Shown: piece after piece, positions 1 to 55,698 of the stretch
How the letters are laid out: every line of letters begins with the position of its first letter
Position numbering within the stretch: the stretch's first letter is position 1
NCBI GenBank assembly: GCA_963674595.2
Contig: CAXXFV010000004.1
Coordinates: 128,001-192,000 of the forward strand
Origin: a bacterium
Lineage (GTDB): Bacteria; Zhuqueibacterota; Zhuqueibacteria; Residuimicrobiales; Krinioviventaceae
Direction of reading: 5' to 3'
DNA: 64,000 nt
Program-made: the position numbers and the translations under genes
The notes under the pieces: generated by a model
The model's input: only the letters and a program-made list of their open reading frames with translations
The model's database searches: none
Told to the model about the DNA's origin: nothing

Positions 1-1589
1 CCGTGATATTTTACAAGAACTTGTTTTTCAACAACATTGTCTGAAATAACGTGCCGCCATTGATACCCAATACCGCCCGGGAACAGTTCTCTGTCTTTTA
101 ATTGACCGTCTGTTTGTATAATATATTTTCCATTGTTCTGAGCACATGTCATTTGGCCGTCATATTCGTAAAGATTTGTAAAATACCCGTCCTTGTCCGA
201 AAATTCTATTCTCGGGGTTACAGGTAATATGCCCGGCGCTTCCGGAAAGTGCATGGGTTCCCATTGATAATATTCGGTTTGACCGGCAAGCTGTAAAAAG
301 CCATAATCCTGCACCCACAAGTTGGAAATCGAACCGCCGGTAGCGCGATGCATATATTTGCTTTTATACCTTCGAAATATATCTTTATAACGATAAGCCG
401 TTATTGTGGTCATAAAATTTTTGGTTCGGGTTACGGTTACGTCAACCGTCTTGAATTCCTGCATCCAACCGATCTTATCTGATGGTAATGCGGGTAAGCT
501 GACATTTGTTTCATCCAATAATTCAAGAGACAAAGCCAAATTCTTTGCCCTGGCAAAGGTGGTGTAATTACAGGGTAAAACGTCAAAAATATCATAATAA
601 TGCGGACCATACCCTATCCATTCTGACTTGAAAAGCGATTTTAAATAGGTCAAATTTCGATAGGCTGCGGTATAGCACCGACTATCACGGGGGCCATATA
701 ATGTAAAAAGCACCTGACACCCGTCCGCAGTTGAACTGCCAAAGGTGGTCCATTTATTTGAACGAACACCCCAGGAGCCATCGATACTTCCATCCGGATA
801 AACAAAATAAAAGTGTGTTTTTACAGCATTAAAAACAAGACTATCAACAAAACTGTTACTGGTAATACGGGCATATAAAGCGAGCCCCCACAAAGACATA
901 TCCAGCTCGTAGCCAATGTCCGAACCATATTTAATACCGAAACTCCGGCCGCCTTCACCATGAATAAAACCGTCCCGGTCCATTTTATCTATTACCTGCC
1001 TGGCAAGCTTATCAGCCTTTCGAATATAGCTGGAATCCGGGAAAAGTTGAAAAACAGAAGCCAATGTTGCTGTTGAGGTCGCACAATAGTTTATACTGGC
1101 AAAATCCGGATCCATGACGTTTACCAAATAATCTGCTGCACGTTGAATACTATTTTGCCACGACTCGTATTCTTTTGATGTCAGAGAGTCTTTAACGATT
1201 GAAAAAGTACGGACCATCATAAGTAATTGATCGGTCGTTGTACCGGTCCATTCTTCCGGCGTTTCTTTCCATGCACCATTTTTCAATTGCTGTTTTATCA
1301 ACCAGTTCCCCAGACGGATTGCTGCTTGCAAATACTTGCTATTTTTTGAATTCTTATAAACAACAGCAAACGGGTACATGGCCTCTGCAGCCCGTGTATG
1401 GCGTATATCACATCTTTTACATTGCAAAGCGCCATAATCTGTATTATCTTTATCAAGTATCTGCGTTTCCAGCAATGTGTCTGTAAGGTTCTCCAGAAAT
1501 ACTCTATACTCATTTCCAATTTCAATTTTAGGAACCGGGGTGGTACAAAAAACAATAAAGGCAAGTAGACTATAGATCAAAAATTTCAT
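1..1589 (-). CDS. Hypothetical secreted or lipoprotein, probable (alpha/alpha) toroid carbohydrate-active-like protein; partial, runs off the left window edge
   Basis: Absent from the ORF track because it has no stop in the window. Hand translation from ATG 1589 (AGGAG upstream) gives MKFLIYSLLAFIVFCTTPVPK...HTRAAEAMYPF...AAIRLGNWLIKQQLKNGAW...YPDGSIDGSWGVRSNKW...VKYHG, open to position 1. The fold call is inference. Confidence 0.75.
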   Translation of the reverse strand, partial: MKFLIYSLLAFIVFCTTPVPKIEIGNEYRVFLENLTDTLLETQILDKDNTDYGALQCKRCDIRHTRAAEAMYPFAVVYKNSKNSKYLQAAIRLGNWLIKQQLKNGAWKETPEEWTGTTTDQLLMMVRTFSIVKDSLTSKEYESWQNSIQRAADYLVNVMDPDFASINYCATSTATLASVFQLFPDSSYIRKADKLARQVIDKMDRDGFIHGEGGRSFGIKYGSDIGYELDMSLWGLALYARITSNSFVDSLVFNAVKTHFYFVYPDGSIDGSWGVRSNKWTTFGSSTADGCQVLFTLYGPRDSRCYTAAYRNLTYLKSLFKSEWIGYGPHYYDIFDVLPCNYTTFARAKNLALSLELLDETNVSLPALPSDKIGWMQEFKTVDVTVTRTKNFMTTITAYRYKDIFRRYKSKYMHRATGGSISNLWVQDYGFLQLAGQTEYYQWEPMHFPEAPGILPVTPRIEFSDKDGYFTNLYEYDGQMTCAQNNGKYIIQTDGQLKDRELFPGGIGYQWRHVISDNVVEKQVLVKYH

Positions 1590-38097: not shown

Positions 38098-41000
38098 TTA
38101 GTTACCCCGGATAGCAATATTAACATCAATACCTAACTCTTTATAGGAAGAGTCTCCAACCAATTTGTTACTGGTTTTTCCGATTTCAAAATAAGCCCCA
38201 CCTTTAACACGATCACTAAAGCTATAACTCATATTAGGTTTCAAGAACCATTTACTTGTTTCACTGGTAACAACAAAATCTTCATCTTTTCTGTTTTTAT
38301 AGGTTATATTATCACCCATATTAAAAGTCAATGAAATATCAACACTGTTTTTTAATCGTTTGTTAAAAAATGGTAGCGGAATTCTGAAATTACCACGTTT
38401 GGTGTATCGGGCGGATATTGACAGATCTGTACTTGTGTTTTTCTGTCCACCGGAACCACCTTTTAAAGTATAAGTCGTTCTTTCTGTACTATTATATTTA
38501 ACAGCCATGGAGATACCATTCTTCCATGAAAATGTCAAACCAATTAATGGCCGAAAACTTATATCAGTCGCCTCTTTTGTCGGTGTTTTAACTCCGGCAT
38601 CTACATCATAATTTCCAGAAATCTTGCCTGAATAATTATGATCAAAAGAAACCCGGCTCATATATTTATTCAGAAAGGGTAACTTTTCCATTCCACTGAC
38701 ACGTACCGTCCAGTCAGGAAACGGCATGCTGACATCTTCACCAAATTTCAACCAACTTTCACTTGTTTGTCCGCTGGTCGTGGTTGAACTTGAGTTTTCG
38801 GATGCACTGTTATCATATTTTAAACTTAGTTTTACATTACGACTCAAACTAAAGCCTGAAGAGACCTGCAAACTGGTGCTTTGGCTTTCGGAATTTTTTT
38901 TACCCGATGTGTTTCCTTCATAAATTTCCGAAGGAACACCTGTATCTTTACTAAAACCGAATTGAAAAGCTGTTGTCGGAACGCCTGCCAAATCGTAAGC
39001 ACTCATTTGAGTTCGTTCGGAATAACTAATGCTAAAAGGATCAAATATATTAAAAAATCCGGAAAAAATTCCTAATACAGAAAATCCTCCTCCGGAATTA
39101 TTATCAGTCTGTTGTGACTGTTTTGATTTAGCGCCAGGCGCTTGTCTTCTTGAAGTGGAACGTCTTTGTCCTCCACGTGAAGGACGATAAATTGAACTAA
39201 ACAAAGTCCCAAGTTTAACCGAACCCGAAGCCATATAATTAATACTTTGGGTTGCGCTTCGAGGCCTTACGGATTGCTGCCGGTTAAAATTAAACTTGTA
39301 AGTGGTGCTATATGAAAAATTACTGGTCATCCAGGAAAACAGTTGCGGCCTGTATTTTACGCCAAAATTTTGATCGACACTGGTCAACAGACCCATTTTA
39401 AATTGTTTTAACTGTTCTTTTAAAGTATCTGTATCAACATCTCGTAAATCATTGACATAAGAACGACTGATATCAACCTGGACACTTTCCGTTACATCCA
39501 TTGTGCCACTGACATTTCTACTAACATTAAAGCTGCTGTTTTCTGTTTCAATTCCGGATCGTAATAATGTGTTGTTCTTAGATCGGGTACCGCTAATTTT
39601 TGTGTTGATTGTTCTGGGCGTATAATAAAGTTTCATTTCTGCAATTCGTGTTACAAGTCTTCCTTTTCCAAGCCAACTGAACGGACGAATATAGTTATTA
39701 TTACTAAAATTAACACCCCAATTCATACTACCGGATTCATTTTTCGTATCTGCGGCTTTTGTTGTGGAACTACGGCTGTGACCAAGATTTTGACTATAAT
39801 TGGCGCTAAATTTTGATAACAGATGTTTTACAACAAAGTTCTGAGATCGGGAATTAATTCGAAATGAAACACTCATTCCTCGTTGTTCACTTATAGTTTG
39901 TGTTTTTTCAATAGTAGAATCCGGCAATGAATCTGAAATCTGCACATCCGTACCCGGAATATATTTTGGTGTTGATTCACTTCGTGAATAATTAATACTT
40001 ACCGGTAATGCAATCCCCAGTTGTGACGGTAAAAATTTATCCACATTAAAACTGGTAGTAAACCGACCACTTAATTTATTATTACCATCACCAAATCGTG
40101 TTTGTATATCATGAAAATCTGCATCTTTTTTTTCCATTTCGCCACTAAAGCGCGCCAGGTCAGCCAAGGAAAAATCCATCTTGGCCCTATAGGCCATACC
40201 TTTGTCTTTTTTTACATTTGACAATCGAAGTTCATTAACCCATACTTGACCGACAAAAGGCATCAAATCATTGGCCTTATCTCCCAATTCGTCCTGACCA
40301 AGGTTTTTAACACCCATAACCAGTTGACGGATGTTTCTTAACGCGGGGTTACCCTTTACAGTAATAAAATGCCCGTCTATTGTATCGACACGAACAGTAA
40401 CCGTAGAGTTTTCATCTTCTACCAGGGTGCCTGTATATTTAACTTGTGATAATTTAACCAAATCAATTTCAATATTGTTCTTTGTCCAGCCGGGAAACAC
40501 AGGCCGCCGGATTTCATAATAATTGTTTTTATCTGCACCTAATCGTAGAAAAAACTCTATTCGTGTCGAATCATTTGTAATGTGCTGTCCAAAATCATCC
40601 TTACCATAGACAAACATCTTTAGGGTATTATAATTAATATAGTCTTGTGCTTCATAAAAGGTCTTAATTATCGTACCGTTATATCCGGGATTCAGATTGT
40701 TTACCTTTATAACCAGAGATTGTTCCCGCTGCTGAACCTGAGTTACACGGTCTACAACACCTTGCACACCGGGAGGCGCCAAACCGGCAGCATATTCCGG
40801 ATTATCATGTGTGTTGATAACTGTTACGGCAATAACAGAATCCTGAGTTATTTCATATTCTTCAGGAAATTCCGGGGAAGCAATTCCCATCTCTTTCCAT
40901 TCACTACCGACAAGGTTAACTTCTGCAATTTGAATGGTATAATAGCTATTTCGGTCTATTTTTTCAAAACCATCCATCCAGATACGAATATATTCAATCT

Positions 41001-44000
41001 GGGAAAAGTTGGGAGAACCAATAACAGTTTTAGTTGGTTCAGGTGCGTTTAAAGGGATTCGATATTGACGCCAGCCGTAACTACCAGAACTACCGGAAAT
41101 AAACGCCGTATCCGGGTGGTCCGAACGTAATGAAAAAGTATATTCAAAATAATCATTCCGAAGATCAACATCGCCGTTACCGTTCAAATCTTCCGTATCA
41201 GGAATTCGACCACCGGCATCATCGGCATTTCCCTCTGTTCCATTAACATTTAAAAAGTTATAGTTCCTGTTTTGTTCCTGGCTGTAACTGTAATCATCGT
41301 TACTAAAGGGTTCACCATAATCCCTTTTCTCGTTTCTATTTATGTCCCAAAAATCGCCGCCATACTTTTGTGCAATCGGACTGTTGTTGGCCATACCATC
41401 AAGGCCTACATCTTCACCGTCATCTAAAATACTGTTTCGTATAGAATTGACTTCTTTATCTTCAGTGTCATATTCTCCATTGGGAATAACGTCTTCAGAA
41501 ATTTGGCCCATATCAATATGCAACGTTCCTGTTGTATGGCGTTGGCTTTCCGGAATTTTAACCCAAACTTCAAGATACTTGGCTTCAGTTTGATCGCTGT
41601 ACCCCGATGATAGTGCTTTTTGAATTCCGTTCCATGATGACCGCACATCATCCACCGTATCCGCAGGAGTAAATTGCAACATTAAAGTTGCAACAGACTT
41701 GGCAACATCTCCGCTAATATCACGTTCCGGCCAAATTTCTTTCATAGATGTTTGTACAACTGGATTATCATATATCAGCTTTCCACGGTGTTCAAGTGTT
41801 ATATCATTTTTACCTTCGTATAACTCACTTTTTGGATAAGACGAATAACTCCAGCTTCTTCGGGTAATAGGAATAGGTGTAACCTGTTTGGATGCTTCAA
41901 AATCGTCAATATAGGCAACACCATCATTATCACCGGTTGATTCATTGTTCCTGGTATTTGGATTCGGTAAAATTTGAGCAACTTCACCTTCAAAGTTAAT
42001 TTTTGATTCTGCTCGGGTATCCACAAACGGTAAATAATTTGCCGCCTTTGTCAGAAAAAAAGGTGTAAACGTCAACTTTGAACTCAAGTCCCAAATCATG
42101 TTACGCATGGGTCCTTTGCCAACACGCACTTTTTGGTCCAGGGTACGTTCATTTAAATAAGTAAAAACACCTGAAATATAGCTGTCATCCCACAAATTAT
42201 ATTTTGCATAAGCTCCCATCATGGTCTTTTTGTCAATTTGAAACAATTGATTGCTTTCATAAGAAATTTCGATCTGTGCATTTGCCGCTGTGGCGTCTGC
42301 AGTCAATAATCGAAGCGTTCCAGTGAAATAATCAATCGTATAATCTGTTCCCCGGTTTAAAGTTCTGCCGTTTAAAAGGACTTCTTCAGAATTTTCGATA
42401 ACATTCATACCCAGACGATATTCCGAACTACGGGTTTTAGAGGTATATTGAATATAAAACTGGCTTGCTTCATTAATAACAGTCTGCACAGTGGTGTCGT
42501 ACAACGCCGAAGCCCAATTATCTTCCGGTAAAAGTTTCTTAACTTCTTCCAACTGCGGATTAAAAGGCGTGAGATCCGGAAAATACAACTCACCGAGAGC
42601 AAAATTAATAATATTTTGATTATCATCAATAATATTGTCCGGAGTCTTAATTCCAGCCTCATTCACCCTGTCTAATCCAAATACCTGTAACCATGTTTTC
42701 TTGCCTTCAGGTGTATCTATTGTTTCAATTGGATCTCCCGAGGCAGGTTTATATAATATTTTTAAATCAAATCCGTCTCTCGGAATATTAGAGGCGCCCA
42801 GACTATACACATTTTTCCATTCAAGATACCACGACCTGTTGGAAGGCTGTGGATTTTTGCCCTTAATCATCCTGAGAACAATATTTTCATCTGTTTCAGG
42901 GTCAAAATAAACATCACCCATTTCATGGCCCGAAGTATCGCGAAAAGCGACAGCCAAAACTTCTTCAGAGTTAAGGGGGGATTTTAGCCGAACATAACCC
43001 ATTTGTTCATCAAAAACATAATCTTCTTTTTCTAAACGTATGAAATATCCACTATAGTGGTTGGCATCTTCATCATCGTTCTGTTCAAGTCGAATCGTGG
43101 CCCAATCTTGCTGATCAGCAGTTGGAGCAATAGCAAAACCTTTTACAGATTCAGCATACATTGTATTATAATTTCTGCCTGATTTATAAAATTCAAATTT
43201 TGAAAGAACTTTGGAAGGATCATAAGTCGGATTACCACTTGCATCTTTGTTTAAAAAATTAAGACGATAATAATCATCAATAAAGAAATAAACATTTCTC
43301 AGGTAATTATAATCTTCAATTCTTTTTTCACTTTCTGATGCACCACCGCTAAGTGACAATTTCTTTTTTTCACCCTTTTCCTGGCTGGCAATTGCCTGCA
43401 ACTCTAAATTACCGATCTCGGCTGTCACTTTAATACCAAATAACCCCTGGCTTGATCCTCCGACAAAACGCGTTCCCGATAATGAAAGACTGGTATTACC
43501 CGCTTCAATAGACTTGATAATCTCATCAGGATGGCCTTTATAATTCAAGTGGAGATTGTTTTCAAATTCAAAGGCTCGTTCCGAATCCTGATCCACACCG
43601 ATTGTAACTTTATCACCAATTTTTCCGTCAACACGGAATCTTTGGGTTTGTTCCATTTTAAAACTGTTGTCGGAACCGCTGTTATAGGTTGTTTTTACCT
43701 GGCTTTGTTTCTCATTACGAAATCCCCCTTTAATTGTAATATCACCAGAAACATCCAGGGCAACCGTTCCGGTTCCGAAAACTTTTTGAAAAGCTTTATT
43801 TTTAATTTCGACGGGAATTTCCAAACGGATAGCACTACCGGCCCCGGACCGGCCTGTTTCTACACCAATGCCACTGACAACAGACTTTCGCCACATTTCG
43901 TTCAGATTATTTTGTCTTCTTTTTTCCACATAATCAGAAAGTTTTAAAAATGTAGGTTGTCGAAAATCAAAATCTCCGAGTTTTTCCGTCAAATTAACAT

Positions 44001-44286
44001 TTTGTCCGGTCGTATCGATTAACACTTTACGGCTAAAACTGGTAAACTTGCGTTTTAAAATCGGCGTACGAACCCCATCAATAAACATCCCCAAATAAGG
44101 CATTTCTTCAGAAATAGAAACACAAGGATCTGCTATAATAGACGCACGTATCCCTATATAGGATGAACGAGTCGATTGAGAAAAAGATATACTCGAAGGA
44201 AATATTCCTAAAATAAAAAATAAAAAAACCCCAAAAATATAGGATTTCACTGTCAATTTAAGCCGTTTAAATGTCATTAATTGCAA
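38098..44286 (-). CDS. sprA: Type IX secretion outer-membrane translocon SprA/Sov
   Basis: 2062 aa; GKIGDKV...FENNLHLNYKG..DEIIKSIEAGN, GLFGIK, DYTIDYFTG, YIDDFE, IPDTEDLNGNG, WRQYRIPL, VWVNELRL; large C-terminal barrel. Confidence 0.9.
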   Translation of the reverse strand: MQLMTFKRLKLTVKSYIFGVFLFFILGIFPSSISFSQSTRSSYIGIRASIIADPCVSISEEMPYLGMFIDGVRTPILKRKFTSFSRKVLIDTTGQNVNLTEKLGDFDFRQPTFLKLSDYVEKRRQNNLNEMWRKSVVSGIGVETGRSGAGSAIRLEIPVEIKNKAFQKVFGTGTVALDVSGDITIKGGFRNEKQSQVKTTYNSGSDNSFKMEQTQRFRVDGKIGDKVTIGVDQDSERAFEFENNLHLNYKGHPDEIIKSIEAGNTSLSLSGTRFVGGSSQGLFGIKVTAEIGNLELQAIASQEKGEKKKLSLSGGASESEKRIEDYNYLRNVYFFIDDYYRLNFLNKDASGNPTYDPSKVLSKFEFYKSGRNYNTMYAESVKGFAIAPTADQQDWATIRLEQNDDEDANHYSGYFIRLEKEDYVFDEQMGYVRLKSPLNSEEVLAVAFRDTSGHEMGDVYFDPETDENIVLRMIKGKNPQPSNRSWYLEWKNVYSLGASNIPRDGFDLKILYKPASGDPIETIDTPEGKKTWLQVFGLDRVNEAGIKTPDNIIDDNQNIINFALGELYFPDLTPFNPQLEEVKKLLPEDNWASALYDTTVQTVINEASQFYIQYTSKTRSSEYRLGMNVIENSEEVLLNGRTLNRGTDYTIDYFTGTLRLLTADATAANAQIEISYESNQLFQIDKKTMMGAYAKYNLWDDSYISGVFTYLNERTLDQKVRVGKGPMRNMIWDLSSKLTFTPFFLTKAANYLPFVDTRAESKINFEGEVAQILPNPNTRNNESTGDNDGVAYIDDFEASKQVTPIPITRRSWSYSSYPKSELYEGKNDITLEHRGKLIYDNPVVQTSMKEIWPERDISGDVAKSVATLMLQFTPADTVDDVRSSWNGIQKALSSGYSDQTEAKYLEVWVKIPESQRHTTGTLHIDMGQISEDVIPNGEYDTEDKEVNSIRNSILDDGEDVGLDGMANNSPIAQKYGGDFWDINRNEKRDYGEPFSNDDYSYSQEQNRNYNFLNVNGTEGNADDAGGRIPDTEDLNGNGDVDLRNDYFEYTFSLRSDHPDTAFISGSSGSYGWRQYRIPLNAPEPTKTVIGSPNFSQIEYIRIWMDGFEKIDRNSYYTIQIAEVNLVGSEWKEMGIASPEFPEEYEITQDSVIAVTVINTHDNPEYAAGLAPPGVQGVVDRVTQVQQREQSLVIKVNNLNPGYNGTIIKTFYEAQDYINYNTLKMFVYGKDDFGQHITNDSTRIEFFLRLGADKNNYYEIRRPVFPGWTKNNIEIDLVKLSQVKYTGTLVEDENSTVTVRVDTIDGHFITVKGNPALRNIRQLVMGVKNLGQDELGDKANDLMPFVGQVWVNELRLSNVKKDKGMAYRAKMDFSLADLARFSGEMEKKDADFHDIQTRFGDGNNKLSGRFTTSFNVDKFLPSQLGIALPVSINYSRSESTPKYIPGTDVQISDSLPDSTIEKTQTISEQRGMSVSFRINSRSQNFVVKHLLSKFSANYSQNLGHSRSSTTKAADTKNESGSMNWGVNFSNNNYIRPFSWLGKGRLVTRIAEMKLYYTPRTINTKISGTRSKNNTLLRSGIETENSSFNVSRNVSGTMDVTESVQVDISRSYVNDLRDVDTDTLKEQLKQFKMGLLTSVDQNFGVKYRPQLFSWMTSNFSYSTTYKFNFNRQQSVRPRSATQSINYMASGSVKLGTLFSSIYRPSRGGQRRSTSRRQAPGAKSKQSQQTDNNSGGGFSVLGIFSGFFNIFDPFSISYSERTQMSAYDLAGVPTTAFQFGFSKDTGVPSEIYEGNTSGKKNSESQSTSLQVSSGFSLSRNVKLSLKYDNSASENSSSTTTSGQTSESWLKFGEDVSMPFPDWTVRVSGMEKLPFLNKYMSRVSFDHNYSGKISGNYDVDAGVKTPTKEATDISFRPLIGLTFSWKNGISMAVKYNSTERTTYTLKGGSGGQKNTSTDLSISARYTKRGNFRIPLPFFNKRLKNSVDISLTFNMGDNITYKNRKDEDFVVTSETSKWFLKPNMSYSFSDRVKGGAYFEIGKTSNKLVGDSSYKELGIDVNIAIRGN

Positions 44287-44575: not shown

Positions 44576-45982
44576 GTGCTTATTTTATGGCGCTACATAA
44601 TTAAAGAACATATAAAACCTTTTTTCTTTGCTATCAGTGTTATTACTCTTGTATTTCTACTGAATCTTGTTTTCCGTGAGTTAGGTCGTATTTTAAGCAG
44701 AGGTCTCAGTTTTCCGCTGGTTGCCGAATTCTTTTTTTTAAACCTCGCTTCCATTATTGCTCTATCGGTGCCCATGGCTGTGCTGGTTTCAACATTAATG
44801 GCATTTGGCCGACTTTCCGGGGACAGTGAAATTATAGCTATGAAAGCCAGCGGTGTCAGCATTATTCGGATCATGTTGCCTATTCTGTTTATGTCGTCCC
44901 TTCTGGCTATTTTTTTAATGTGGTTTAATAATCAAATACTACCGGACTTTAATCACCGTTCACGCCTTTTGGCAAGTGACATTGCCAGGAAAAGACCCAC
45001 TCTCAACCTTGAAGCAGGCGTCATCTATAGAGACATTCCTGACTATAATATTCTGGTACAGTCTATTAAAGAAACACAGGATACGGCTTTTGTAAAATCA
45101 ATCTTTATCGAAGAAAAAAGCGACCCAACCAAAAGTCTGATTATTTTTGCTGAACATGGAAAAATCTTTTCTCAGGAAACCAGAGGACTTATTTACCTGA
45201 TTTTGTATGATGGAGAAATGCATGAGATGGACCTTGAAAAGATGGACCATTATCGCAAACTGGAGTTTCCAAAACAAATTTTAACCATTAACATCCCGGA
45301 AATGATACTACACCGAAGTGATTCTGAATATCGTGGTGACCGGGAAAAAAGCGCACAACAAATGCACAAAGAAGTTCAGGAAAACAGAAAATCCATTAAC
45401 GAAAGAAAAGTAAATATAGCAAACGCTATAAACAGACATTTTGAAAAATATTTTCCTTTAAAAGCCCAAAATATTAAAACACAAAAAGTTGAGGAGCTTG
45501 AACCGGACACTTACCGGCAACTGTCCCTGCCTGTAAAAAACAATGAAAAACAATTAATCGGAAAAATCAGAAGAGACCATCAAAATCTTTTACAACAGAT
45601 TAAAAGTGAACGACATATTATATCACAACTGGAACGAGGCAATTCCGGTCTTTTGGTTGAAATACATAAAAAATATTCAATCCCAATTGCCTGTATTGTT
45701 TTTATTCTGATTGGTTCTCCATTGGGAATTATGGCAAGAAAAGGAAATATGGCTGTTGCCACCGGCATAAGTTTTGTCTTTTTTCTTATCTATTGGATAT
45801 CACTCATCGGAGGAGAAGACCTGGCAGATCGTCAAATTATCTCTCCTATTATTGCTATGTGGGGGGCCAATATTATTGTAGGCATAAGCGGACTATATCT
45901 TGTTATACACTCTATACGTGAAACCACATTTGTTAACTGGACAGCCTTGCAAAACTTTTTTACACGAAAGAAAAATAAATGA
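44576..45982 (+). CDS. lptF: LPS export ABC transporter permease LptF (LptF/LptG family)
   Basis: FGRLSGDSEIIAMKASGVS, EIHKKYSIPIAC, six transmembrane helices; tandem with a second LptF/G gene. Confidence 0.85.
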   Translation: MLILWRYIIKEHIKPFFFAISVITLVFLLNLVFRELGRILSRGLSFPLVAEFFFLNLASIIALSVPMAVLVSTLMAFGRLSGDSEIIAMKASGVSIIRIMLPILFMSSLLAIFLMWFNNQILPDFNHRSRLLASDIARKRPTLNLEAGVIYRDIPDYNILVQSIKETQDTAFVKSIFIEEKSDPTKSLIIFAEHGKIFSQETRGLIYLILYDGEMHEMDLEKMDHYRKLEFPKQILTINIPEMILHRSDSEYRGDREKSAQQMHKEVQENRKSINERKVNIANAINRHFEKYFPLKAQNIKTQKVEELEPDTYRQLSLPVKNNEKQLIGKIRRDHQNLLQQIKSERHIISQLERGNSGLLVEIHKKYSIPIACIVFILIGSPLGIMARKGNMAVATGISFVFFLIYWISLIGGEDLADRQIISPIIAMWGANIIVGISGLYLVIHSIRETTFVNWTALQNFFTRKKNK

Positions 45983-47055
45983 CCCTGCTTGATCGCTATA
46001 TATCAAAACGCTTTTTACAGGTTTTGTTTTTTTCTCTGTTTGCATTTTTAACTGTATTTGTGGTCGTTAATATGATTGAAAAGATGGATGACTTTTTAAA
46101 TCAGAACGTCCCCAAATTTGTTATTATGCAATTTTATCTCAGCTCACTTCCATATTTTGTTGTGCTTTGTTTACCAATTTCAATGCTGTTGGCAAGTTTA
46201 TTTAGCGTCGGCAACATGACAAGACAAAATGAAATAATGGCCATGAAAGCATCCGGAATTTCTCTTTACCGAATCTTTTTGCCGCTATATTTTATCGGAT
46301 TTCTGGTCAGCATCGGGGCATTTTATTTTGGAGAATATGTCGTTCCTTATGCCAGTGAAAAAAGGGAATATATTAAAGATGAGTATATGGAAAAACATCG
46401 TGAAAGCTGGCGAAAATCCATCAAAGACGTTTATGCGCGCGATAATATGGACCGTTTGATAAATATTCGCTCTTATAACACAGCCAGAAATGTCGGCAGA
46501 ATCGTCAGCGTTCGAAAATTTGAAGGGGATGAACTTGTTAAAAGGATTGATGCCAAAACCATTACCTGGAAAGACAGTTCCTGGATTCTTCATGACGGCT
46601 ACCAAAGATCTTTCCCGGAAAGCCCTGAAAATACCGGTCCATTCCGGGAAATGCATCTGCAAAATTGCAATTTAACCCCAAAAGACTTTGCTAAAAACCT
46701 GAAACTTCCTGAAGAAATGTCATCAGTAGAACTTGGGGAGTTTATTAAAGAAGTCGAAAGAAACGGCAGTAATCCGGAAAAATGGCTGGTAGATTATTAT
46801 TTAAAATTTTCTTTTCCCCTGGCAAACCTGATCATAGTCCTTTTTGGTGCACCTTTTTCATCTCAAACCCGCCGTGGCAGTGCCGCAACCGGTTTTGGTA
46901 TAAGTTTACTTGTCTGCTTTGTGTATTTTGGTATTGTAAAAACATCCCAAGCTGTTGGTCACAACGGCTATTTGCCGCCGCTTATTGCTGCCTGGCTGGC
47001 AAATATCGTATTTCTGGTCGGGGGTGTTTTTGTAACTTTTAAAGCACCCAAATAA
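45979..47055 (+). CDS. lptG: LPS export ABC transporter permease LptG
   Basis: LLDRYI, NEIMAMKASGIS, PEEMS, KFSFPL, PPLIAAWLAN. Confidence 0.85.
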   Translation: MTLLDRYISKRFLQVLFFSLFAFLTVFVVVNMIEKMDDFLNQNVPKFVIMQFYLSSLPYFVVLCLPISMLLASLFSVGNMTRQNEIMAMKASGISLYRIFLPLYFIGFLVSIGAFYFGEYVVPYASEKREYIKDEYMEKHRESWRKSIKDVYARDNMDRLINIRSYNTARNVGRIVSVRKFEGDELVKRIDAKTITWKDSSWILHDGYQRSFPESPENTGPFREMHLQNCNLTPKDFAKNLKLPEEMSSVELGEFIKEVERNGSNPEKWLVDYYLKFSFPLANLIIVLFGAPFSSQTRRGSAATGFGISLLVCFVYFGIVKTSQAVGHNGYLPPLIAAWLANIVFLVGGVFVTFKAPK

Positions 47056-47059
47056 GTAG

Positions 47060-48055
47060 TTAACTTCCACTATTTGTTAAAGTATATAACAATTTTTCAA
47101 CTTTTTTGGCAATTTCAGACGAATCTTGAGACACATCAACCGGCAGTTTTTCACCATTTTGGTTCTGGAAATAGATGGCATTTAAAAAATCCTGTAATAC
47201 ATCTTTGGGCAGTTTTGCAGAATATATAAAAATCCGGTTTCGTCTGTTTGTGCGGCTCATTTCAATTTTTTTCGCTCCAATTGGTGTGAGTAGCGTAAAC
47301 TCGTTTTTGGGAGATATTTGCTTCTTTTCTAAAAAACGTTTATCAACAAGTTTATTTAGGACAATATCAAGTTCAGATCTTGTCATTCCGCCAGTGGTAT
47401 CAAATTGTGCAAAAATGTCCAGGTCTGAAACCTCACCCTTTTCATAGATAACACTCATGGCTTGCATCTCTTTCTCATCAGGGAAAAAATCAAGTTCCGG
47501 ATTCGTATTTTTGGGTAATATCTTTTCTTTTACAGCCTTTAAGCCTTTAAATAAAAGATAAGGTACGTCAACAGTTTGATCATGTCCGGTTTGCTGTTTT
47601 TTAATATTTTGTTCAATTTGGTCATTAATTAAGGCAGGGTTCGGCGCCTTATTGCCGGAATTGGTTAATAAATCAGCATTAAATCGATTGGATGTTTTTA
47701 CCGTGTCCTTAAAATTTTGAAAATGAAATTGAGGCTGCAAGGCAAACAACCGCTCCCGAACGGATTGTTTTACAGTATCCTGAGCCGCAACCTTTTCAGG
47801 CCTTAAAACCGGCTCAATAAATGATTCTTTTTCCAGGTCCTTTATAACCGGTTCAGTCGGTTGCTTAAATACAGAACGTGGTGCCGGCGGCGTAACAAGG
47901 GGTTTTTCAATAATGGCAGGTGGTTCATTCATGAGTGAAATATCAAACTTTAAATATTTTATCTTTTTTTCAGGTACATTTATACGGCCAAGCAATAATA
48001 CAATTAAAACATGAAAAAGCAGTGAACAAACAACAGCAATATGGAAAGGTTTCAT
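47060..48055 (-). CDS. TonB-like membrane-anchored protein with a BlaI/CopY-like winged-helix C-terminal domain
   Basis: N-terminal helix AVVCSLLFHVLIVLLL (SxxxH), Pro-rich linker, then EKEMQAMSVIYEKGEVS...LNKLVDKRFL...RIFIYSAKL. The ORF is solid; the domain calls are by eye. Confidence 0.6.
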   Translation of the reverse strand: MKPFHIAVVCSLLFHVLIVLLLGRINVPEKKIKYLKFDISLMNEPPAIIEKPLVTPPAPRSVFKQPTEPVIKDLEKESFIEPVLRPEKVAAQDTVKQSVRERLFALQPQFHFQNFKDTVKTSNRFNADLLTNSGNKAPNPALINDQIEQNIKKQQTGHDQTVDVPYLLFKGLKAVKEKILPKNTNPELDFFPDEKEMQAMSVIYEKGEVSDLDIFAQFDTTGGMTRSELDIVLNKLVDKRFLEKKQISPKNEFTLLTPIGAKKIEMSRTNRRNRIFIYSAKLPKDVLQDFLNAIYFQNQNGEKLPVDVSQDSSEIAKKVEKLLYTLTNSGS

Positions 48056-48211
48056 AATTCAAATGTGCCCAACATGACCCGAAAAAAACATTTAATTATT
48101 AATACGTTTTTTACCCAAAACAGTTCCCTCGATTTCGATAAATAACTTGCTTTTTATTATGTTATAGACTAAGTTTTTAATCAATAAAAAATTGTTTTTA
48201 AAGGAATATTC

Positions 48212-48529
48212 ATGGACTCTTTTATTCTTGTATTCAGCACATTTAGTTCTGAAGAAGAAGCAAAAAAAATCAGCAATCAGGTTGTAAAAGCAAGGCTGGC
48301 CGCCTGTGCCAATATAGTACCTAAGGTACACTCTATATTTCACTGGAAAAACGAATTATCGCATGAAGATGAAGTTATAGTTTTAATGAAAACACAAAAA
48401 AAACATTTAAAAGAACTTGTACTATGGATACAATCGCACCATAGCTATGAACTTCCCGAAGTGATAGCGTTACCGATTATCGGCGGTTCAGAAGAGTATT
48501 TAGACTGGATTAAAGAAGAAACATCCTGA
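48212..48529 (+). CDS. cutA: Divalent-cation tolerance protein
   Basis: LAACANIVP, SIFHW, E..VLMKT, HSYELPEVIALPI..GSEEYLDW. Confidence 0.93.
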   Translation: MDSFILVFSTFSSEEEAKKISNQVVKARLAACANIVPKVHSIFHWKNELSHEDEVIVLMKTQKKHLKELVLWIQSHHSYELPEVIALPIIGGSEEYLDWIKEETS

Positions 48530-48544
48530 CCCATAGGAAATATA

Positions 48545-49300
48545 TTGAAACTAACAATATTAGGTTCCGGTACCTGCGTGCCTGTAAAAAATCGTTCCTG
48601 CGCATCATATTACATACAATTTGAAAACCAACACCTGATTTTTGACATCGGTTGCGGAACGTTGCGGCGGATGGCAGAAGCCGGGGTTCCCTATTCTGAA
48701 ATCGATAGTGTGATGATTACCCATACTCACCCGGACCATGTGTCGGACCTTGCGCCGTTTATTATGGCACTTAATCATACACCCGGCCTGCACAGGACAA
48801 AACCGTTAAATCTTTATGGACCTGCCGGATTTACCGATTTTATCAACAACCTCAAAGAAACATTTGGGACAAGTTTGCTGGAACCCAAAACATTTCAACT
48901 GAACATTATTGAAATGGAAAACGAATCTATTCAGAACTCTGATTATAAACTGGCAGCCTTAAACCTTAAACACAGCCGGAATACAGTCGGATATCGTTTG
49001 GAACATAAACATAAAGTTTTCGTTTACTCTGGTGATACCGAACTCTGCGATAATATTATCAAACTGGCACAAAACGCCGATATGGCTTTGCTGGAATGCT
49101 CTGCACCGGACCATGAACCTTTACCGGGACATTTAACGATTTCACAAACTTTGGATATTGCAGAAAAAGCAGGCTGCAAAAAACTCATTTTAACCCATTT
49201 TTATCCGGCAATGGAAGAAATTCAATTAACCCGGGATTATGAAAAAAAATTCTCCGGTGACATAATAAAAGCGCAAGATTTTTTAATTACAAACGTTTAA
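48545..49300 (+). CDS. Metallo-beta-lactamase-fold hydrolase, RNase Z/BN-like
   Basis: LTILGSG, DIGCG, THTHPDH, YSGDT, GHLT, LILTHFYP. Confidence 0.85.
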   Translation: MKLTILGSGTCVPVKNRSCASYYIQFENQHLIFDIGCGTLRRMAEAGVPYSEIDSVMITHTHPDHVSDLAPFIMALNHTPGLHRTKPLNLYGPAGFTDFINNLKETFGTSLLEPKTFQLNIIEMENESIQNSDYKLAALNLKHSRNTVGYRLEHKHKVFVYSGDTELCDNIIKLAQNADMALLECSAPDHEPLPGHLTISQTLDIAEKAGCKKLILTHFYPAMEEIQLTRDYEKKFSGDIIKAQDFLITNV

Positions 49301-49320: not shown

Positions 49321-50283
49321 ATGCCCCTTTTCATTCAAAAACATTTTACAAAAATAGCAATTATTGTTTCTATTATCCTGCACTTATTGTTTTTCCTGAC
49401 ATACAGGTATTGGGCTAATATGTTTGGCCTTTTATCCATTCTTAAAAATCTGGAAGCAACAACTGAAGTTGAACCTATCGAGTTTGAACTTGTTGATCCG
49501 GCGCCTCCCCCAAAAAGAAGTAATGAGATTATAGAAACCCCGGATGAAGCAAAGATTGATGCCCCGTCCCCTAACGCTAAATATGCTTCCGACAAAAACA
49601 CACAAGCCCAGGACCTTTATGAAAATAAGGATTTACCGACAGGAGAATCTTATTCTAACGGAATTTCCAAATATCATCTGTTTGCCGGTGGAGGAATGCC
49701 GCAGGAAGTAAATCAATCCCAAAAACAGGAAAATGAAGGGACAGAGGGAGAGCAAAGCAGAAATCAGGAAAACAATAAGGGTGAATTTGCGCAAACACAG
49801 GAAGGAGATATCGATTTAGGATCTGTTCAGCGGCAATCGAGCAGAACATCCCGGTTTACCAAAGAACTGTTATCCGGTAAAGGCAATATCCAAAATCAAC
49901 ATACACAAGCGTTCAGCGACGATGCTGACTGGAAAAATATTGATACAAACGCCGATGTATTGGGCGGTATTTCTCTTAGCGCCTACGATTGGGATTTTGC
50001 ACCCTATATTCTATACCTTAAAAAGCGTATACGTCAACACCTTTATCCTCCTGCTGCATTTTATCGAATGGGAATGATAAGCGGCGAGGTGACAATAAAA
50101 TTTAGAATACACCCCGACGGTACATTATCCGATGTGGAAGTTGTTTCCACCAAAGGACACAAAGCGTTTGTGCCGCCAAGTGAAAATTCCATTATTGCAT
50201 CAAGCCCGTTTCGGCCGTTGCCTGACAGTTTCAAACACCCTTTTTTAGACATTACAAGTACCTTTATGTTTAACATATATTAG
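49321..50283 (+). CDS. tonB: TonB/TolA-family energy transducer
   Basis: N-terminal helix with SIILH, Pro/Glu linker, C-domain YPPAA...GEVTIKFRIHPDGTL...PFRPLP; precedes exbB and exbD. Confidence 0.8.
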   Translation: MPLFIQKHFTKIAIIVSIILHLLFFLTYRYWANMFGLLSILKNLEATTEVEPIEFELVDPAPPPKRSNEIIETPDEAKIDAPSPNAKYASDKNTQAQDLYENKDLPTGESYSNGISKYHLFAGGGMPQEVNQSQKQENEGTEGEQSRNQENNKGEFAQTQEGDIDLGSVQRQSSRTSRFTKELLSGKGNIQNQHTQAFSDDADWKNIDTNADVLGGISLSAYDWDFAPYILYLKKRIRQHLYPPAAFYRMGMISGEVTIKFRIHPDGTLSDVEVVSTKGHKAFVPPSENSIIASSPFRPLPDSFKHPFLDITSTFMFNIY

Positions 50284-50322: not shown

Positions 50323-50943
50323 ATGAATCAAGTTATTTCAACACTGGCTCGCGGCGGCATTGTAATGATCCCGCTGGTTCTCTGCTCTATCATCGGCCTT
50401 GCCGTTGTTATTGAAAAATTTTACAATTTGAGAAAAAATAAAATCCTGATACCGGAAATTATTTCGGTCATCGAATCCATTAAAAGCCTTCAGGACGTTA
50501 AACTGGCCACAACAATATGTGAACGCAATAACGGCCCGTTTCCAAATATTATCCTTTCAGGCCTGAGAAACCAGAACCTTGAAATGGAAGAAATTAAAGA
50601 GCTTATAAACGACGAAGGGCGTCAACAGGTGAGAACGCTCGAACGCGGTCTGCCGGTCCTTGAAACCGTAGCAAGCATAGCGCCCCTGCTTGGACTTTTG
50701 GGAACTGTTCTTGGTATGATCAAAGTGTTTACTGTTATCTCAACACAAGGTACCGGACAGGCAAGCCTTTTGGCCGGAGGTATTTCGGAAGCGCTTATCA
50801 CCACCGCAACCGGACTTGTTATCGGTATCCCTTTGCTGGTGGCTTTTAATTATTTTACAAACAAGGCAGAAAATTTTATCATGGATATTGAAAAATATTC
50901 AACAGACCTGCTGCAAAAAATTCGCTTAATTAATGAGAAATAA
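50323..50943 (+). CDS. exbB: MotA/TolQ/ExbB proton channel protein
   Basis: GGIVMIPL, IAPLLGLLGTVLGMI, AGGISEALITTATGLVIGIP. Confidence 0.9.
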   Translation: MNQVISTLARGGIVMIPLVLCSIIGLAVVIEKFYNLRKNKILIPEIISVIESIKSLQDVKLATTICERNNGPFPNIILSGLRNQNLEMEEIKELINDEGRQQVRTLERGLPVLETVASIAPLLGLLGTVLGMIKVFTVISTQGTGQASLLAGGISEALITTATGLVIGIPLLVAFNYFTNKAENFIMDIEKYSTDLLQKIRLINEK

Positions 50944-50946
50944 TTT

Positions 50947-51353
50947 ATGCAGTTTAAAGAAAAAAAGAAAAAAGCACACGGTATTAATATTACATCATTA
51001 ATTGATGTTATGTTTATCCTTTTAATATTTTTATGGTTTCTTCGAGTTTTGTAGAACAACCGGGAATGAAACTTGAACTGCCCACCATAAAATCAAAACA
51101 AGTCGCACGTATTGAAAATTTGGTCATTTACATATCCAAAGACGATCAAGTTTATTTGCAAAACCAAAAAGTCGAACTTGAAACCCTTGGTGAAGCAATT
51201 AAAAAGCAAATCCCCAATCTTGAAGAAAAAACACTGGTATTAAAGGCAGATAAAGAAGCAGAGCATGGTATTGTCGTTCAGATTATGGATATTGCCAAAC
51301 AAAGTGGTTTGAAAAAAATCGTCATAGGAACCCGTATTGAAGGTGAAGGTTAA
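50947..51353 (+). CDS. exbD: ExbD/TolR biopolymer transporter; 1-nt frameshift near 51030
   Basis: ATG 50947 reads MQFKEKKKKAHGINITSLIDVMFILLIF; adding one T to the T5 run 51028-51032 continues as FMVSSSF into track ORF 51033-51353 (LKADK...VQIMD). Confidence 0.88.
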
Positions 51354-53374: not shown

Positions 53375-54318
53375 ATGCAAAATATTATTTTTACATCCAG
53401 CATTGTTATGCCGGTATTTTTACTCGTCTTTTTAGGCGTGTTTTTAAAAAAGAAGAATTTAATCAACGAAGCATTTATGCAGGTTTCATCAAAGGTTGTG
53501 TTTCGGGTGGCGCTTCCTTCTTTGGTATTTCAAAAAATTTCATCAACAGATTACAGCAAAGTACTAAATCCGAAACAAATAGTTTTTGCGGTTGTTTATA
53601 TTATACTTTTTTGTCTGTTTGCAGGTATTGTTACATATTTTTTCACGAAAAACGGAAAAACCCAGGGAGCTGTTATCCAGGCAAGTTTTCGGACCAATTT
53701 TTCCATTATAGGCTTTGCATTGATTTTTAATGCCTTTGGAGAAATGGCCCTGGCAAACGCCGCTATCTTACTTGCGTTTATTATGCCCCTGCTTAATATT
53801 TTGTCCGTATTTGCCTTGACAATCCCGTTGCATCGGGAAGGAAACGTTAACATAAAGAAAATTTTTAAAGATATTATTACAAATCCATTAATTATTGCAG
53901 CAATGGCAGCCGTACCATTTTCTTTTTTTCATATTCAGATACACCCTATTTTCAGTCGCACAATCGGTTACCTGGCAGGACTTACATTACCGTTAGCCCT
54001 TTTGTCAATCGGCGGTTCATTGAGCTTTCATAGTGTAAAAAAAGAGTTTTCAGCCGCTGCACTGGCAACTTTTTTTAAAATTGTGCTTATGCCGGCAATA
54101 GGAATGTTCCTGGCTGTTTATCTCGGGTTTCGGGAATGGAACTGGGTGTTCTTTTCTTTTTGTTTGCCGGTCCGACAGCCATAGCCAGCTACATTATGGC
54201 CGACGCCATGGGCAGCAACGGAGAGCTGGCCGGAAATATTATTCTCACAACAACACTTGGATCAATTGTTACGTTATCTTTAGGTTTGCTGTTACTAAAA
54301 ACACTGTCTCTCATCTAA
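53375..54318 (+). CDS. AEC (auxin efflux carrier/malate permease) family transporter; 1-nt frameshift near 54133
   Basis: PVFLLVFLG, VFRVALPSLVF, NPLIIA, PLALLSIG; the C-terminal part PTAIASYIMA..MGSNGELA lies in ORF 54136-54318; adding one G to GGG 54132-54134 gives FRGMELG. Confidence 0.85.
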
Positions 54319-54337: not shown

Positions 54338-55698
54338 ATGCTTACAGTATCTCGAACAAAAAAACACTATATCATAGTTACGGTTTTTGTTTCCATTCTG
54401 GTTCTTGCTTCCTGTACAACTCCAAAAGTTACACCTGAAACGGCGTTACAAAGCTATTTGCAAACACCGGAACCGGATTACAACTGGAAAATAATCAAAT
54501 CAGATACGCTGGACGAAACAACAGTTAATTACCTGCTCCTGACATCACAAAGGTGGAGAGATACATTATGGACACATCAATTGGCCATTATTATCCCCAA
54601 ACACCTTAAAACCACCGATGCATCTCTGTTATTTATAACCGGCGGCAAAAATGACAACGGCAAGCCCAGATGGCGAAAAAATGAAGACAAGACAATTAAA
54701 AGAATGCAAAAAATTGCCGACGCCAATAAAGCCCCGGTTGCTGTTATATGCCAGGTTCCCAATCAACCTTTGTACGGCGGTAAAACCGAAGACGAATTGA
54801 TTTCCTACACATTGCACAAGTACAAAGAAACAAAAGATTTTACCTGGCCGCTGTTGTTCCGATGACAAAAAGCGCCGTCAAGGCCATGGACGCTGTTCAG
54901 GAATATTTTCAAAACGAACACGGACTTTTAATAGAAAGTTTTGTTGTATCCGGCGCTTCCAAACGCGGCTGGACAACCTGGCTCACCGGCGCCAGTGATC
55001 CCAGGGTCATTGGTATTGCGCCCATGGTAATTGATGTTTTGAACATGAGCGCTCAAATGGATTACCAGGTAAAAACCTGGGGTGATTACAGTCCGGAAAT
55101 TCAGGACTATGTAAATCTGGGAATTACGGATGAATTACAAACGGAAAACGGTAAAGAATTGACTGCCATGATCGATCCCTATTCCTATCGTGATAAAATA
55201 ACCATGCCGAAACTTTTATTCATCGGCACCAATGATCCCTACTGGCCGGTTGATGCCGTAAAAAATTACTTTAATGACCTGGTCGGATCAAAATATATAC
55301 ACTATGTTGCCAACGTTGAACATGGTCTTGGTGACGGTGTTCAGGCAACTCAGGCCCTCAGCTCCTTCTATGCCGCCTGTATCGCCAGCCAGCATCCAAA
55401 CCTGACATGGGAAACGACAACATCCAATCCAAGTGTATCTGTAAAAATAAATACGGATACACCCTATAATGCCGTAAAACTGTGGACATGTACCTCGCCG
55501 GACAGGGACTTTCGAAACGATACATGGACATCAAAAATCATAGACACAAAAGGGAATAATCAATTTACGGTTGATGTTGAATTGCCACAAAACGGTTTTT
55601 TAGCGTTTTATATTGACATTGTTTATAACAGCCTGGTGGGAGGAGAATACTCTAAAAGCACCAGAATGTTTGTAGCAGACAGTAAGGACATATTATAA
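54338..55698 (+). CDS. PhoPQ-activated pathogenicity-related (PqaA-like) alpha/beta hydrolase lipoprotein; 1-nt frameshift near 54860
   Basis: Lipobox LASC; LTSQRW, WTHQL, VPNQPL, EDELIS; adding one C at CC 54859-54860 gives WPLLFPMTKSAV and joins GASKRGWTTW, IDPYSY, NVEH. Confidence 0.85.

Follow-up and report, generated by a model that had tools for sequence, protein, structure and literature searches.

The question raised by this locus is what kind of protein begins like TonB and ends like a BlaI repressor. The window, a 64,000-nucleotide stretch of the bacterial contig CAXXFV010000004.1 (assembly GCA_963674595.2, positions 128,001 to 192,000), carries a gene of this kind close to a tonB-exbB-exbD cluster:

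47060..48055, minus strand: the target gene, with an ATG start, encoding 331 amino acids (aa), stop codon included.

An earlier note on this DNA had described the product as a fusion of a TonB-type anchor with a BlaI/CopY-like winged helix, and our analyses recovered the architecture as described. The protein is not a TonB, because its head fails the test for one (the Pfam scan found no match to TonB_C or TonB_2 at E ≤ 1), and it is not a BlaI repressor, because it has neither the location nor the partner genes of one. We favour, with moderate confidence, the reading that it is a Ton-associated periplasmic protein that docks on the ExbB-ExbD motor via a TonB-type module and uses a BlaI-derived head for a ligand other than DNA.

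The part of the protein that precedes the head consists of the following elements, in which pLDDT is the predicted local distance difference test value of the AlphaFold2 (AF2) model:

47984..48049, minus strand: N-terminal transmembrane helix, residues 3-24, a helix in the AF2 model (pLDDT 77-95).
48011-48025, minus strand: SxxxH core, S11 and H15, within the helix of residues 3-24.
47930..47950, minus strand: D-box- or motor-box-like strand FDISLMN, residues 36-42, followed by EPP; fits the D-box pattern of PMC10907165.
47624..47929, minus strand: proline-rich spacer, predicted to be disordered, residues 43-144 (pLDDT 47-71).
47501..47623, minus strand: two conserved helices, residues 145-185, modelled at 146-156 and 164-179 (pLDDT 68-82), with D145 and G157 conserved.

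The N-terminus of the target reads ...CSLLFHVLIV..., with S11 and H15 inside an apolar helix of 20-22 residues. In an alignment of 137 family members, to which all family counts of n = 137 refer, the S11 column is Ser in 103 sequences and the H15 column is His in 94, showing that SxxxH is conserved among homologues; by a simple rule, 84 of the 137 carry SxxxH within their first apolar run of at least 17 residues. The likeness to the neighbouring TonB that the earlier note had pointed out was also recovered. When the family profile was compared with an alignment of 15 orthologues of that TonB, Ser fell on Ser and His on His over 25 columns (hhalign E = 1.1e-5, a value possibly inflated by transmembrane composition), and pairwise BLAST of the target against the TonB of the window aligned the same 15 residues (E = 0.046). 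Scanning the entire 6.6-Mb genome for this pattern gave nine open frames of at least 150 aa with an N-terminal SxxxH helix, among them the target, the TonB of the window, a TonB beside exbB on contig C14 and a 350-aa frame beside a MotA/ExbB gene. We also considered C10 as the acylated residue of a lipoprotein and rejected this candidate, as the Cys is not conserved in the family and is preceded by A-V-V, a poor lipobox.

According to the text of Loll et al. (2024, PMC10907165), the TonB D-box follows the pattern hydrophobic-polar-hydrophobic-polar-hydrophobic-hydrophobic-polar with flanking prolines and is clamped by two ExbD periplasmic domains. Both FDISLMN-EPP of the target and IEFELVD-P of the neighbouring TonB match this pattern. 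Across the 86 anchored members, a five-residue alternating strand pattern is present in 49 versus 21.5 expected from shuffles of the same 42-residue windows, with enrichment at His+18..23 and a peak 21 residues past the His, and the strict seven-residue D-box pattern is present in 25 versus 8.1 in shuffles. [quoted passage not shown] Beyond the strand, the target has 14 prolines in the 120 residues from 25 to 144, nine of them in the 46 residues from 25 to 70. The median spacer of anchored members is 122 aa long with 11.5% Pro, versus 84 aa and 7.0% Pro in non-anchored members, and the two helices before the head are found in anchored and signal-peptide-type members alike.

The head itself is predicted to comprise three parts, the first being the helix-turn-helix (HTH) core:

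47336..47479, minus strand: HTH core of a BlaI-type winged helix, residues 193-240, with helices at 194-206, 211-217 and 226-238; net charge −5.
47210..47335, minus strand: enlarged wing, residues 241-282, with strands at 242-246, 252-257, 260-265 and 276-280 and a helix at 268-272 (pLDDT >90).
47072..47209, minus strand: two C-terminal helices, residues 283-328, modelled at 284-299 and 312-328, in the position of the BlaI/MecI dimerisation helices.

Given the family alignment, AF2 modelled the protein at a mean pLDDT of 77.5, with residues 190-300 above 90; the mean from the single sequence was 38.9. The top structural match of the head was MecI (1okr_A, Z = 11.0, root-mean-square deviation 1.9 Å, 87 residues over model positions 188-299), followed by the Rv1846c regulator of M. 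tuberculosis (Z = 10.3) and CopR (Z = 9.1), with dozens more winged helices at Z values of 8.4-9.8. The modelled winged-helix fold is therefore certain, and the lead of the BlaI family in the structure search is modest. Foldseek returned both BlaI and MecI at probability 1.0, with target-normalised TM-scores of 0.5-0.7, in agreement with the earlier note, which had assigned the C-terminal domain to the BlaI/MecI/CopY pattern.

It is sequence that decides the family of the head, through profile, Pfam and hhalign matches to the BlaI family. Pfam Penicillinase_R (PF03965) matches target residues 194-251 with E = 0.0022 and 18.8 bits, under its cut-off of 22.6, and the NCBIfam CopY/TcrY model matches with E = 0.0055. 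Across the family, Penicillinase_R is found at E ≤ 0.01 in 72 of 137 members (best E = 1.5e-9). Searched against the sequences of the PDB, the family profile found CopR (2k4b, E = 1.1e-5), BlaI (1p6r, E = 1.8e-4) and MecI (1okr, E = 0.075), and it aligned with a canonical BlaI of the host genome at an hhalign E of 1.9e-5. No vWA family was among the Pfam matches of the target at E ≤ 1. The head has no cysteine, the sole Cys of the protein being C10, and therefore lacks a CopY-type metal site.

The head differs from its relatives above all in the wing. Given the 87 MecI residues aligned over model positions 188-299, the target has 25 extra residues, in agreement with the basic insertion of about that length that had been noticed in the wing. 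The insertion falls between the two strands that form the wing in BlaI, and the BlaI profile match is interrupted between profile positions 246 and 276; the MecI alignment ends at residue 299 and so covers the first C-terminal helix only. It contains the majority of the positions that are nearly invariant in the family (S248, P249, E265, S267, N270, R271, N273 and Y278). The net charge of wing plus insertion is +7 in the target and +3.75 on average in the family, with a range of +1 to +8.

These features bear on the proposal that the protein binds nucleic acid or another polyanion in the periplasm through its basic wing (NRRNR), for instance in DNA uptake powered by ExbBD. DNA-binding repressors have this fold, contacts with the DNA backbone are frequent for the wings of such domains, and wing plus insertion is basic in 137 of 137 members. 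The surface that reads DNA in canonical repressors, however, is acidic here: the HTH core has a net charge of −5 in the target and −2.4 on average in the family, and the recognition helix averages −1.5, versus net charges of +3 and +4 over residues 1-62 of the two canonical BlaI proteins in the genome. Moreover, the residues with the highest conservation (S-P, E, S, N, N, Y) are atypical as DNA contacts, and no competence genes were found among the neighbours examined, the conserved ones being cutA, a gene for a metallo-beta-lactamase (MBL)-fold hydrolase, tonB and exbBD. Given this polarity of an acidic core and a basic wing, the export of the head described below and the absence of competence genes nearby, sequence-specific DNA binding is improbable, and we consider a periplasmic nucleic-acid binder of this kind very unlikely, if not quite the least probable of the readings weighed here. 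Binding of a polyanion or a protein strand at the wing is possible, including a non-nucleic polyanion such as lipopolysaccharide or lipid phosphate, an alternative that overlaps with the favoured reading of a motor-docked protein with a non-DNA ligand.

On which side of the membrane would the head work? The earlier note had placed the C-terminus in the periplasm by analogy with TonB and TolA, and the family alignment points the same way. In 44 of 137 members, as classified by a simple heuristic rather than SignalP, the anchor is replaced by a signal-peptide-like N-terminus, short and apolar, without the His and typically ending in ..AQ, ..GQ or ..SQ. Orthologues at the same tonB-adjacent locus (G009, G025, G030, G034, G139 and G140) are of this type, indicating that the signal-peptide forms are not a separate, unrelated subfamily. 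The host genome itself carries both forms, the anchored target and a second copy elsewhere:

G000:C15:308294-309115, minus strand: second family copy, 273 aa, with a signal-peptide-like N-terminus and a Penicillinase_R match of 26.5 bits, above the cut-off.

Since the head is routinely made behind a signal peptide, it works outside the cytoplasm, and the N-termini across the family establish, at the level of predicted signals, that it is exported to the periplasm. The charges flanking the helix agree: in the anchored members the N-flank averages +2.66 versus +0.43 for the C-flank, and it is the more positive of the two in 64 of 86.

This evidence also argues against a membrane-tethered transcription factor of reversed topology, in which the head would be cytoplasmic and regulate the divergent cutA-tonB-exbBD operon. 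Homology to BlaI-family repressors and divergent transcription from that operon would fit such a regulator, as would the flanks of the target taken alone, which are more positive after the helix than before (+2 in the N-flank; five K/R and two D/E in the C-flank). The signal-peptide-like N-termini of about one-third of the members, same-locus orthologues included, argue against it, as do the more positive N-flanks of most anchored members, the TonB-type SxxxH and strand motifs, which imply that the N-terminus is inside, and the acidic recognition helix. We regard a reversed topology as highly unlikely. The earlier note had offered both this regulator and DNA uptake as possible functions, and neither was supported. 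The three observations that it had named as fatal to its main idea (a C-terminal domain that does not model as a winged helix, an SxxxH motif unconserved in homologues, and a cleaved N-terminal helix) were not made.

How widespread is the family? A word-indexed homologue search found the target protein itself only, and a family-profile search of the indexed proteins gave eight matches, all unnamed or 'hypothetical'. Over 1.84 billion representatives, exhaustive phmmer gave 189 matches at E ≤ 0.001, and at E ≤ 1e-10 there were 111; the named records are 'hypothetical protein' entries from metagenome-assembled genomes (MAGs) labelled Calditrichaeota/Calditrichota, candidate division KSB1 or Candidatus Zhuqueibacter, with a few further and probably loose labels (uncultured Cytophagia, Deferribacteres). 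Apart from the weak repressor matches, the protein falls in no Pfam or NCBIfam family, and the Protein Atlas gave no usable match, either with the full-length sequence or with residues 140-331. Within the phylum, the family profile found the gene in 152 of 167 genomes (150 of 165 without two unpublished genomes, G158 and G162), in 99 of 105 high-quality genomes and in 94 of 100 genera, and most of these have one copy. A further weak Penicillinase_R match in the host genome, a 197-aa frame on contig G000:C36 beside an apparent ferrous-iron transporter gene, was considered as a family member and rejected; it seems unrelated and presumably resembles an iron-dependent repressor.

The target gene lies next to the genes for a Ton motor, which are arranged on the opposite strand as follows:

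48212-48529, plus strand: cutA (Pfam CutA1, E = 5e-36), divergent from the target and upstream of tonB.
48545-49300, plus strand: MBL-fold hydrolase gene (Pfam Lactamase_B_2, E = 1.7e-20), divergent from the target and upstream of tonB.
49321-50283, plus strand: tonB, a distinct single-copy subtype, with an SxxxH helix, an IEFELVD strand and Pfam TonB_C at 28.5 bits.
50323-50943, plus strand: exbB (Pfam MotA_ExbB, E = 3e-35).
50947-51353, plus strand: exbD (Pfam ExbD, E = 3e-20), out of frame at a five-T run at 51028-51032.

The intergenic region between the target and cutA is 156 bp long (48056-48211). We compared this arrangement with the whole genomes of 41 close relatives, combining the coordinates of family gene and tonB by hand; as related genomes are not independent samples, the linkage counts that follow are descriptive and not statistics. 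The family gene is present in 34 of the 41 and the neighbouring tonB subtype in 31 (E ≤ 1e-20), with 26 relatives carrying both genes, eight the family gene only, five the tonB subtype only and two neither. Among the 26 relatives with both genes, the two lie within 3 kb in 22, 11 kb apart in one and on different contigs in three. The 22 close pairs span three taxonomic families (f1 14, f2 5, f4 3), and the family gene is divergent from tonB wherever both were seen. In 20 BLAST-annotated loci of relatives, tonB was found in 13, cutA in 10 and lptF/G in 10; cutA and the MBL-fold hydrolase gene recur beside the family gene, and tonB is followed by exbB-exbD here and in many relatives. In a phylum-wide sample of 20 loci, the family gene was called in 18, and the tonB subtype was within about 4 kb in eight of these, comprising four anchored members (one with Ala for Ser), two of signal-peptide type and two unclear.

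We propose the following mechanism for the anchored form, in which the docking steps are inferred from the precedent of TonB and TolA (PMC12204202, PMC10907165), where SxxxH contacts ExbB or TolQ. The first ~45 residues, signal-anchor helix plus D-box-like strand, would form a docking module of TonB/TolA type, with the SxxxH helix docking on ExbB and the strand being clamped by the ExbD dimer. The motor would be the ExbB-ExbD pair encoded 2 kb away, occupied beside or in alternation with the adjacent TonB. The spacer of about 100 proline-rich residues would cross the periplasm carrying a head of about 185 residues, whose core is a winged helix descended from BlaI/MecI/CopY repressors that has lost their basic DNA-reading face, its recognition helix being acidic. 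The strictly conserved polar and basic wing of four strands, which the head has gained, would be the site for an envelope partner (an anionic component of the envelope or a strand of a protein, and not DNA), and that partner would be placed or pulled under the control of the proton-motive force. The architecture, the homology of both ends, the export of the head, its conservation across the phylum and the synteny with tonB-exbBD are what the data show, and motor binding, force transmission and the ligand are proposed on top of them; coupling to the proton-motive force is plausible, and the D-box-like motif and the adjacency to tonB-exbBD add to the case for it.

Alternatively, the protein may be a periplasmic accessory or regulatory Ton factor whose helix is a mere tether and whose head acts alone, with no force transmitted. 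Such a head might bind TonB, ExbD, a TonB-dependent transporter or peptidoglycan, and the helix might keep it close to the motor or allow it to rival TonB at the site on ExbB. Orthologues with a signal-peptide-like N-terminus in the same position beside cutA-(MBL)-tonB-exbBD are what this alternative would predict, as are the signal-peptide type of the second copy in the host genome and the fact that conservation across all members is confined to the head and the two helices before it; at 10 of the 18 sampled loci of the phylum, too, the member is of signal-peptide type and away from tonB. A plain tether, however, would need neither a conserved Ser/His pair nor a strand motif at a fixed distance nor a proline-rich spacer, and these co-vary in the anchored members; in addition, the tonB subtype is no more than about 4 kb away from any of the four clearly anchored members of the phylum sample. 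We consider a mere tether less likely than motor docking, but it is the main rival, favoured by the many signal-peptide forms, and far more likely than DNA uptake or a reversed topology.

Several observations weigh against docking and force transmission, the reading that we favour. Of the SHLS motif, the family keeps the Ser and His alone, with the positions of Leu and Ser (His+7 and His+11) variable, and no more than the 25 of 86 anchored members noted above have the strict D-box. The family gene and the tonB subtype do not always occur together, given the eight relatives without such a tonB at E ≤ 1e-20 and the five with tonB alone. Orthologues in the same tonB-adjacent position can be anchorless, and the 10 sampled loci of signal-peptide type have no such tonB within about 7 kb; in many lineages, therefore, the head works undocked, and it may not require force. 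The target's own flanking charges oppose an internal N-terminus, and both the non-independence of the genomes and the heuristic behind the signal-peptide class limit what the counts can carry.

Lastly, the window has exbD out of frame, though this is probably an effect of assembly. Contigs from two other studies (X3 and X7) have one extra T in the five-T run, contigs X1 and X10 from two further runs stop at that run, and ExbD is intact in all seven relatives aligned. The most likely cause of the break is faulty assembly at a homopolymer; it is not the sign of a dead motor.

The target gene itself appears sound. Near-identical strain contigs from other studies span it with zero indels inside the open reading frame (ORF), and the 21 base differences listed within the ORF comprise 14 synonymous and seven non-synonymous changes, indicating that it is a real gene. 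None of the RNA runs listed contains this stretch. Listed strain differences amount to 21 per 996 bases in the target versus four per ~1600 in tonB plus exbB (16 more are unlisted), and identity of the family between genera is 25-35%; this larger number of strain differences and the low identity between genera suggest that the target probably evolves fast.

How does the protein compare with known systems? Like TonB and TolA (PMC12204202, PMC10907165), it has a signal-anchor helix with Ser-x3-His, a strand of D-box pattern, a proline-rich spacer and a globular C-terminal head, and its gene is positioned beside tonB-exbB-exbD. Unlike theirs, the head is a winged helix without the fold of TonB_C or TolA domain III, the full SHLS motif has kept neither its Leu nor its second Ser, and many orthologues are anchorless. 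The closest published parallel is the class of vWA-headed, SHLS-anchored transducers proposed in 2025 by Williams-Jones et al. (PMC12204202). As far as the main text of that paper describes them, these share with the target family an SHLS-type helix, a predicted motor box, a spacer of ~100 residues, a head that is neither TonB nor TolA, and synteny with motor genes, and in both cases function is inferred from architecture. The target family differs in its BlaI-type winged-helix head, in its distribution among KSB1- and Calditrichota-labelled MAGs and in a locus that also encodes a regular TonB. The main text of PMC12204202 does not contain the terms 'BlaI', 'winged' or 'Calditrich', and full-text literature searches turned up no account of a BlaI-like head on a TonB-type anchor, nor of a periplasmic winged helix. 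The remark of the earlier note that it knew of no described protein of this architecture agrees with this for the fusion itself and needs qualification for the principle, as the SHLS anchor with a non-TonB (vWA) head was published in 2025.

With BlaI, MecI and CopY (PF03965) the target shares a homologous winged helix and C-terminal helices after the wing; it differs from them in being exported, in having ~190 residues before the domain, in the 25-residue wing insertion and in the acidic recognition helix. The Pfam scan found no M56 sensor-protease gene among the neighbours in the window, whereas the two strong M56 genes of the genome each adjoin a canonical BlaI (G000:C14:92052-93977 and G000:C16:437967-440103). 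The M56 protein of the latter locus (G000:C16:437967-439616) has a TonB_C match and lies next to a canonical BlaI at 439702-440103. This BlaR1-like M56-TonB_C fusion is a mirror image of the target: there the sensor-protease bears a TonB head and BlaI stays cytoplasmic, whereas here a TonB anchor bears a BlaI-like head. Both link BlaI/BlaR1 with TonB in one genome. M56-TonB_C fusions are probably widespread in this group of bacteria.

For a long time TonB and TolA were regarded as the sole carriers of ExbBD/TolQR motor energy across the periplasm, until the 2025 survey proposed the class with vWA heads. The present family adds another and unexpected head, a repressor-type winged helix outside the cytoplasm, and if this is true it would be the first BlaI/Penicillinase_R-family domain working there. 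More generally, and tentatively, since we hold this wider claim to have somewhat less than an even chance of being right, the family may represent a further head type for transducers driven by the proton-motive force: an exported BlaI-fold descendant on a TonB-type anchor, moved by ExbB-ExbD and acting on an outer-envelope partner, as a near-universal core gene of the phylum that was probably born beside tonB. The family is unannotated and yet present in about nine of every ten genomes of the phylum, and for this reason it is likely to be important to the cell envelope in these uncultured bacteria. That one head exists in anchored and in signal-peptide form offers a natural experiment on what tethering to the motor contributes. 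For annotation, sub-threshold BlaI/CopY matches behind a long N-terminal extension should not be recorded as transcriptional regulators.

Some further observations concern the Ton genes of this genome. The middle part of the neighbouring TonB contains long conserved motifs (ELVETP, SDKNA-A-D, FAGGG and LGG-SLSTY-W--APY) that are foreign to ordinary TonB linkers, and its best NCBIfam match is TolA (E = 1.1e-6, below cut-off). The 350-aa SxxxH frame (G000:C4:398536-399588, plus strand) adjoins the sixth MotA/ExbB gene (C4:396982), has a weak TonB_C match (22.7 bits) and may encode a TolA-like or other non-canonical transducer. None of the TolB_N matches in the genome adjoins any of the six MotA/ExbB loci.

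The neighbourhoods of signal-peptide-type members share no common theme; those seen include rhomboid and tetratricopeptide repeat (TPR) genes, a phosphoesterase beta-propeller gene, and an aspartyl protease gene with a B12-type ABC importer. The second copy in the host genome is flanked by a TPR/aspartyl-protease gene and a PP-loop (Diphthami_syn_2) gene, and beyond its flank lie a Peripla_BP_2 gene and then frames whose products by eye resemble an ABC ATPase, a permease and a kinase of CobU type.

On the other side of the target in the window, lptF-lptG (44576-47055, assigned by Pfam) are convergent with it. Upstream of these, a 2062-aa frame (38098-44286, minus strand; 50-57% identity in relatives) may, to judge by size and sequence alone, be SprA-like and belong to a type IX secretion system. 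Beyond exbD, a 269-aa membrane-protein frame with an overlapping 60-aa frame (53375-54318, plus strand) corresponds to a single frame of 314 aa in relatives, and this split may be another assembly frameshift. Similarly, the two frames at 54338-55698 (plus strand; 175 and 278 aa, overlapping by four bases) may be one gene split through a frameshift.

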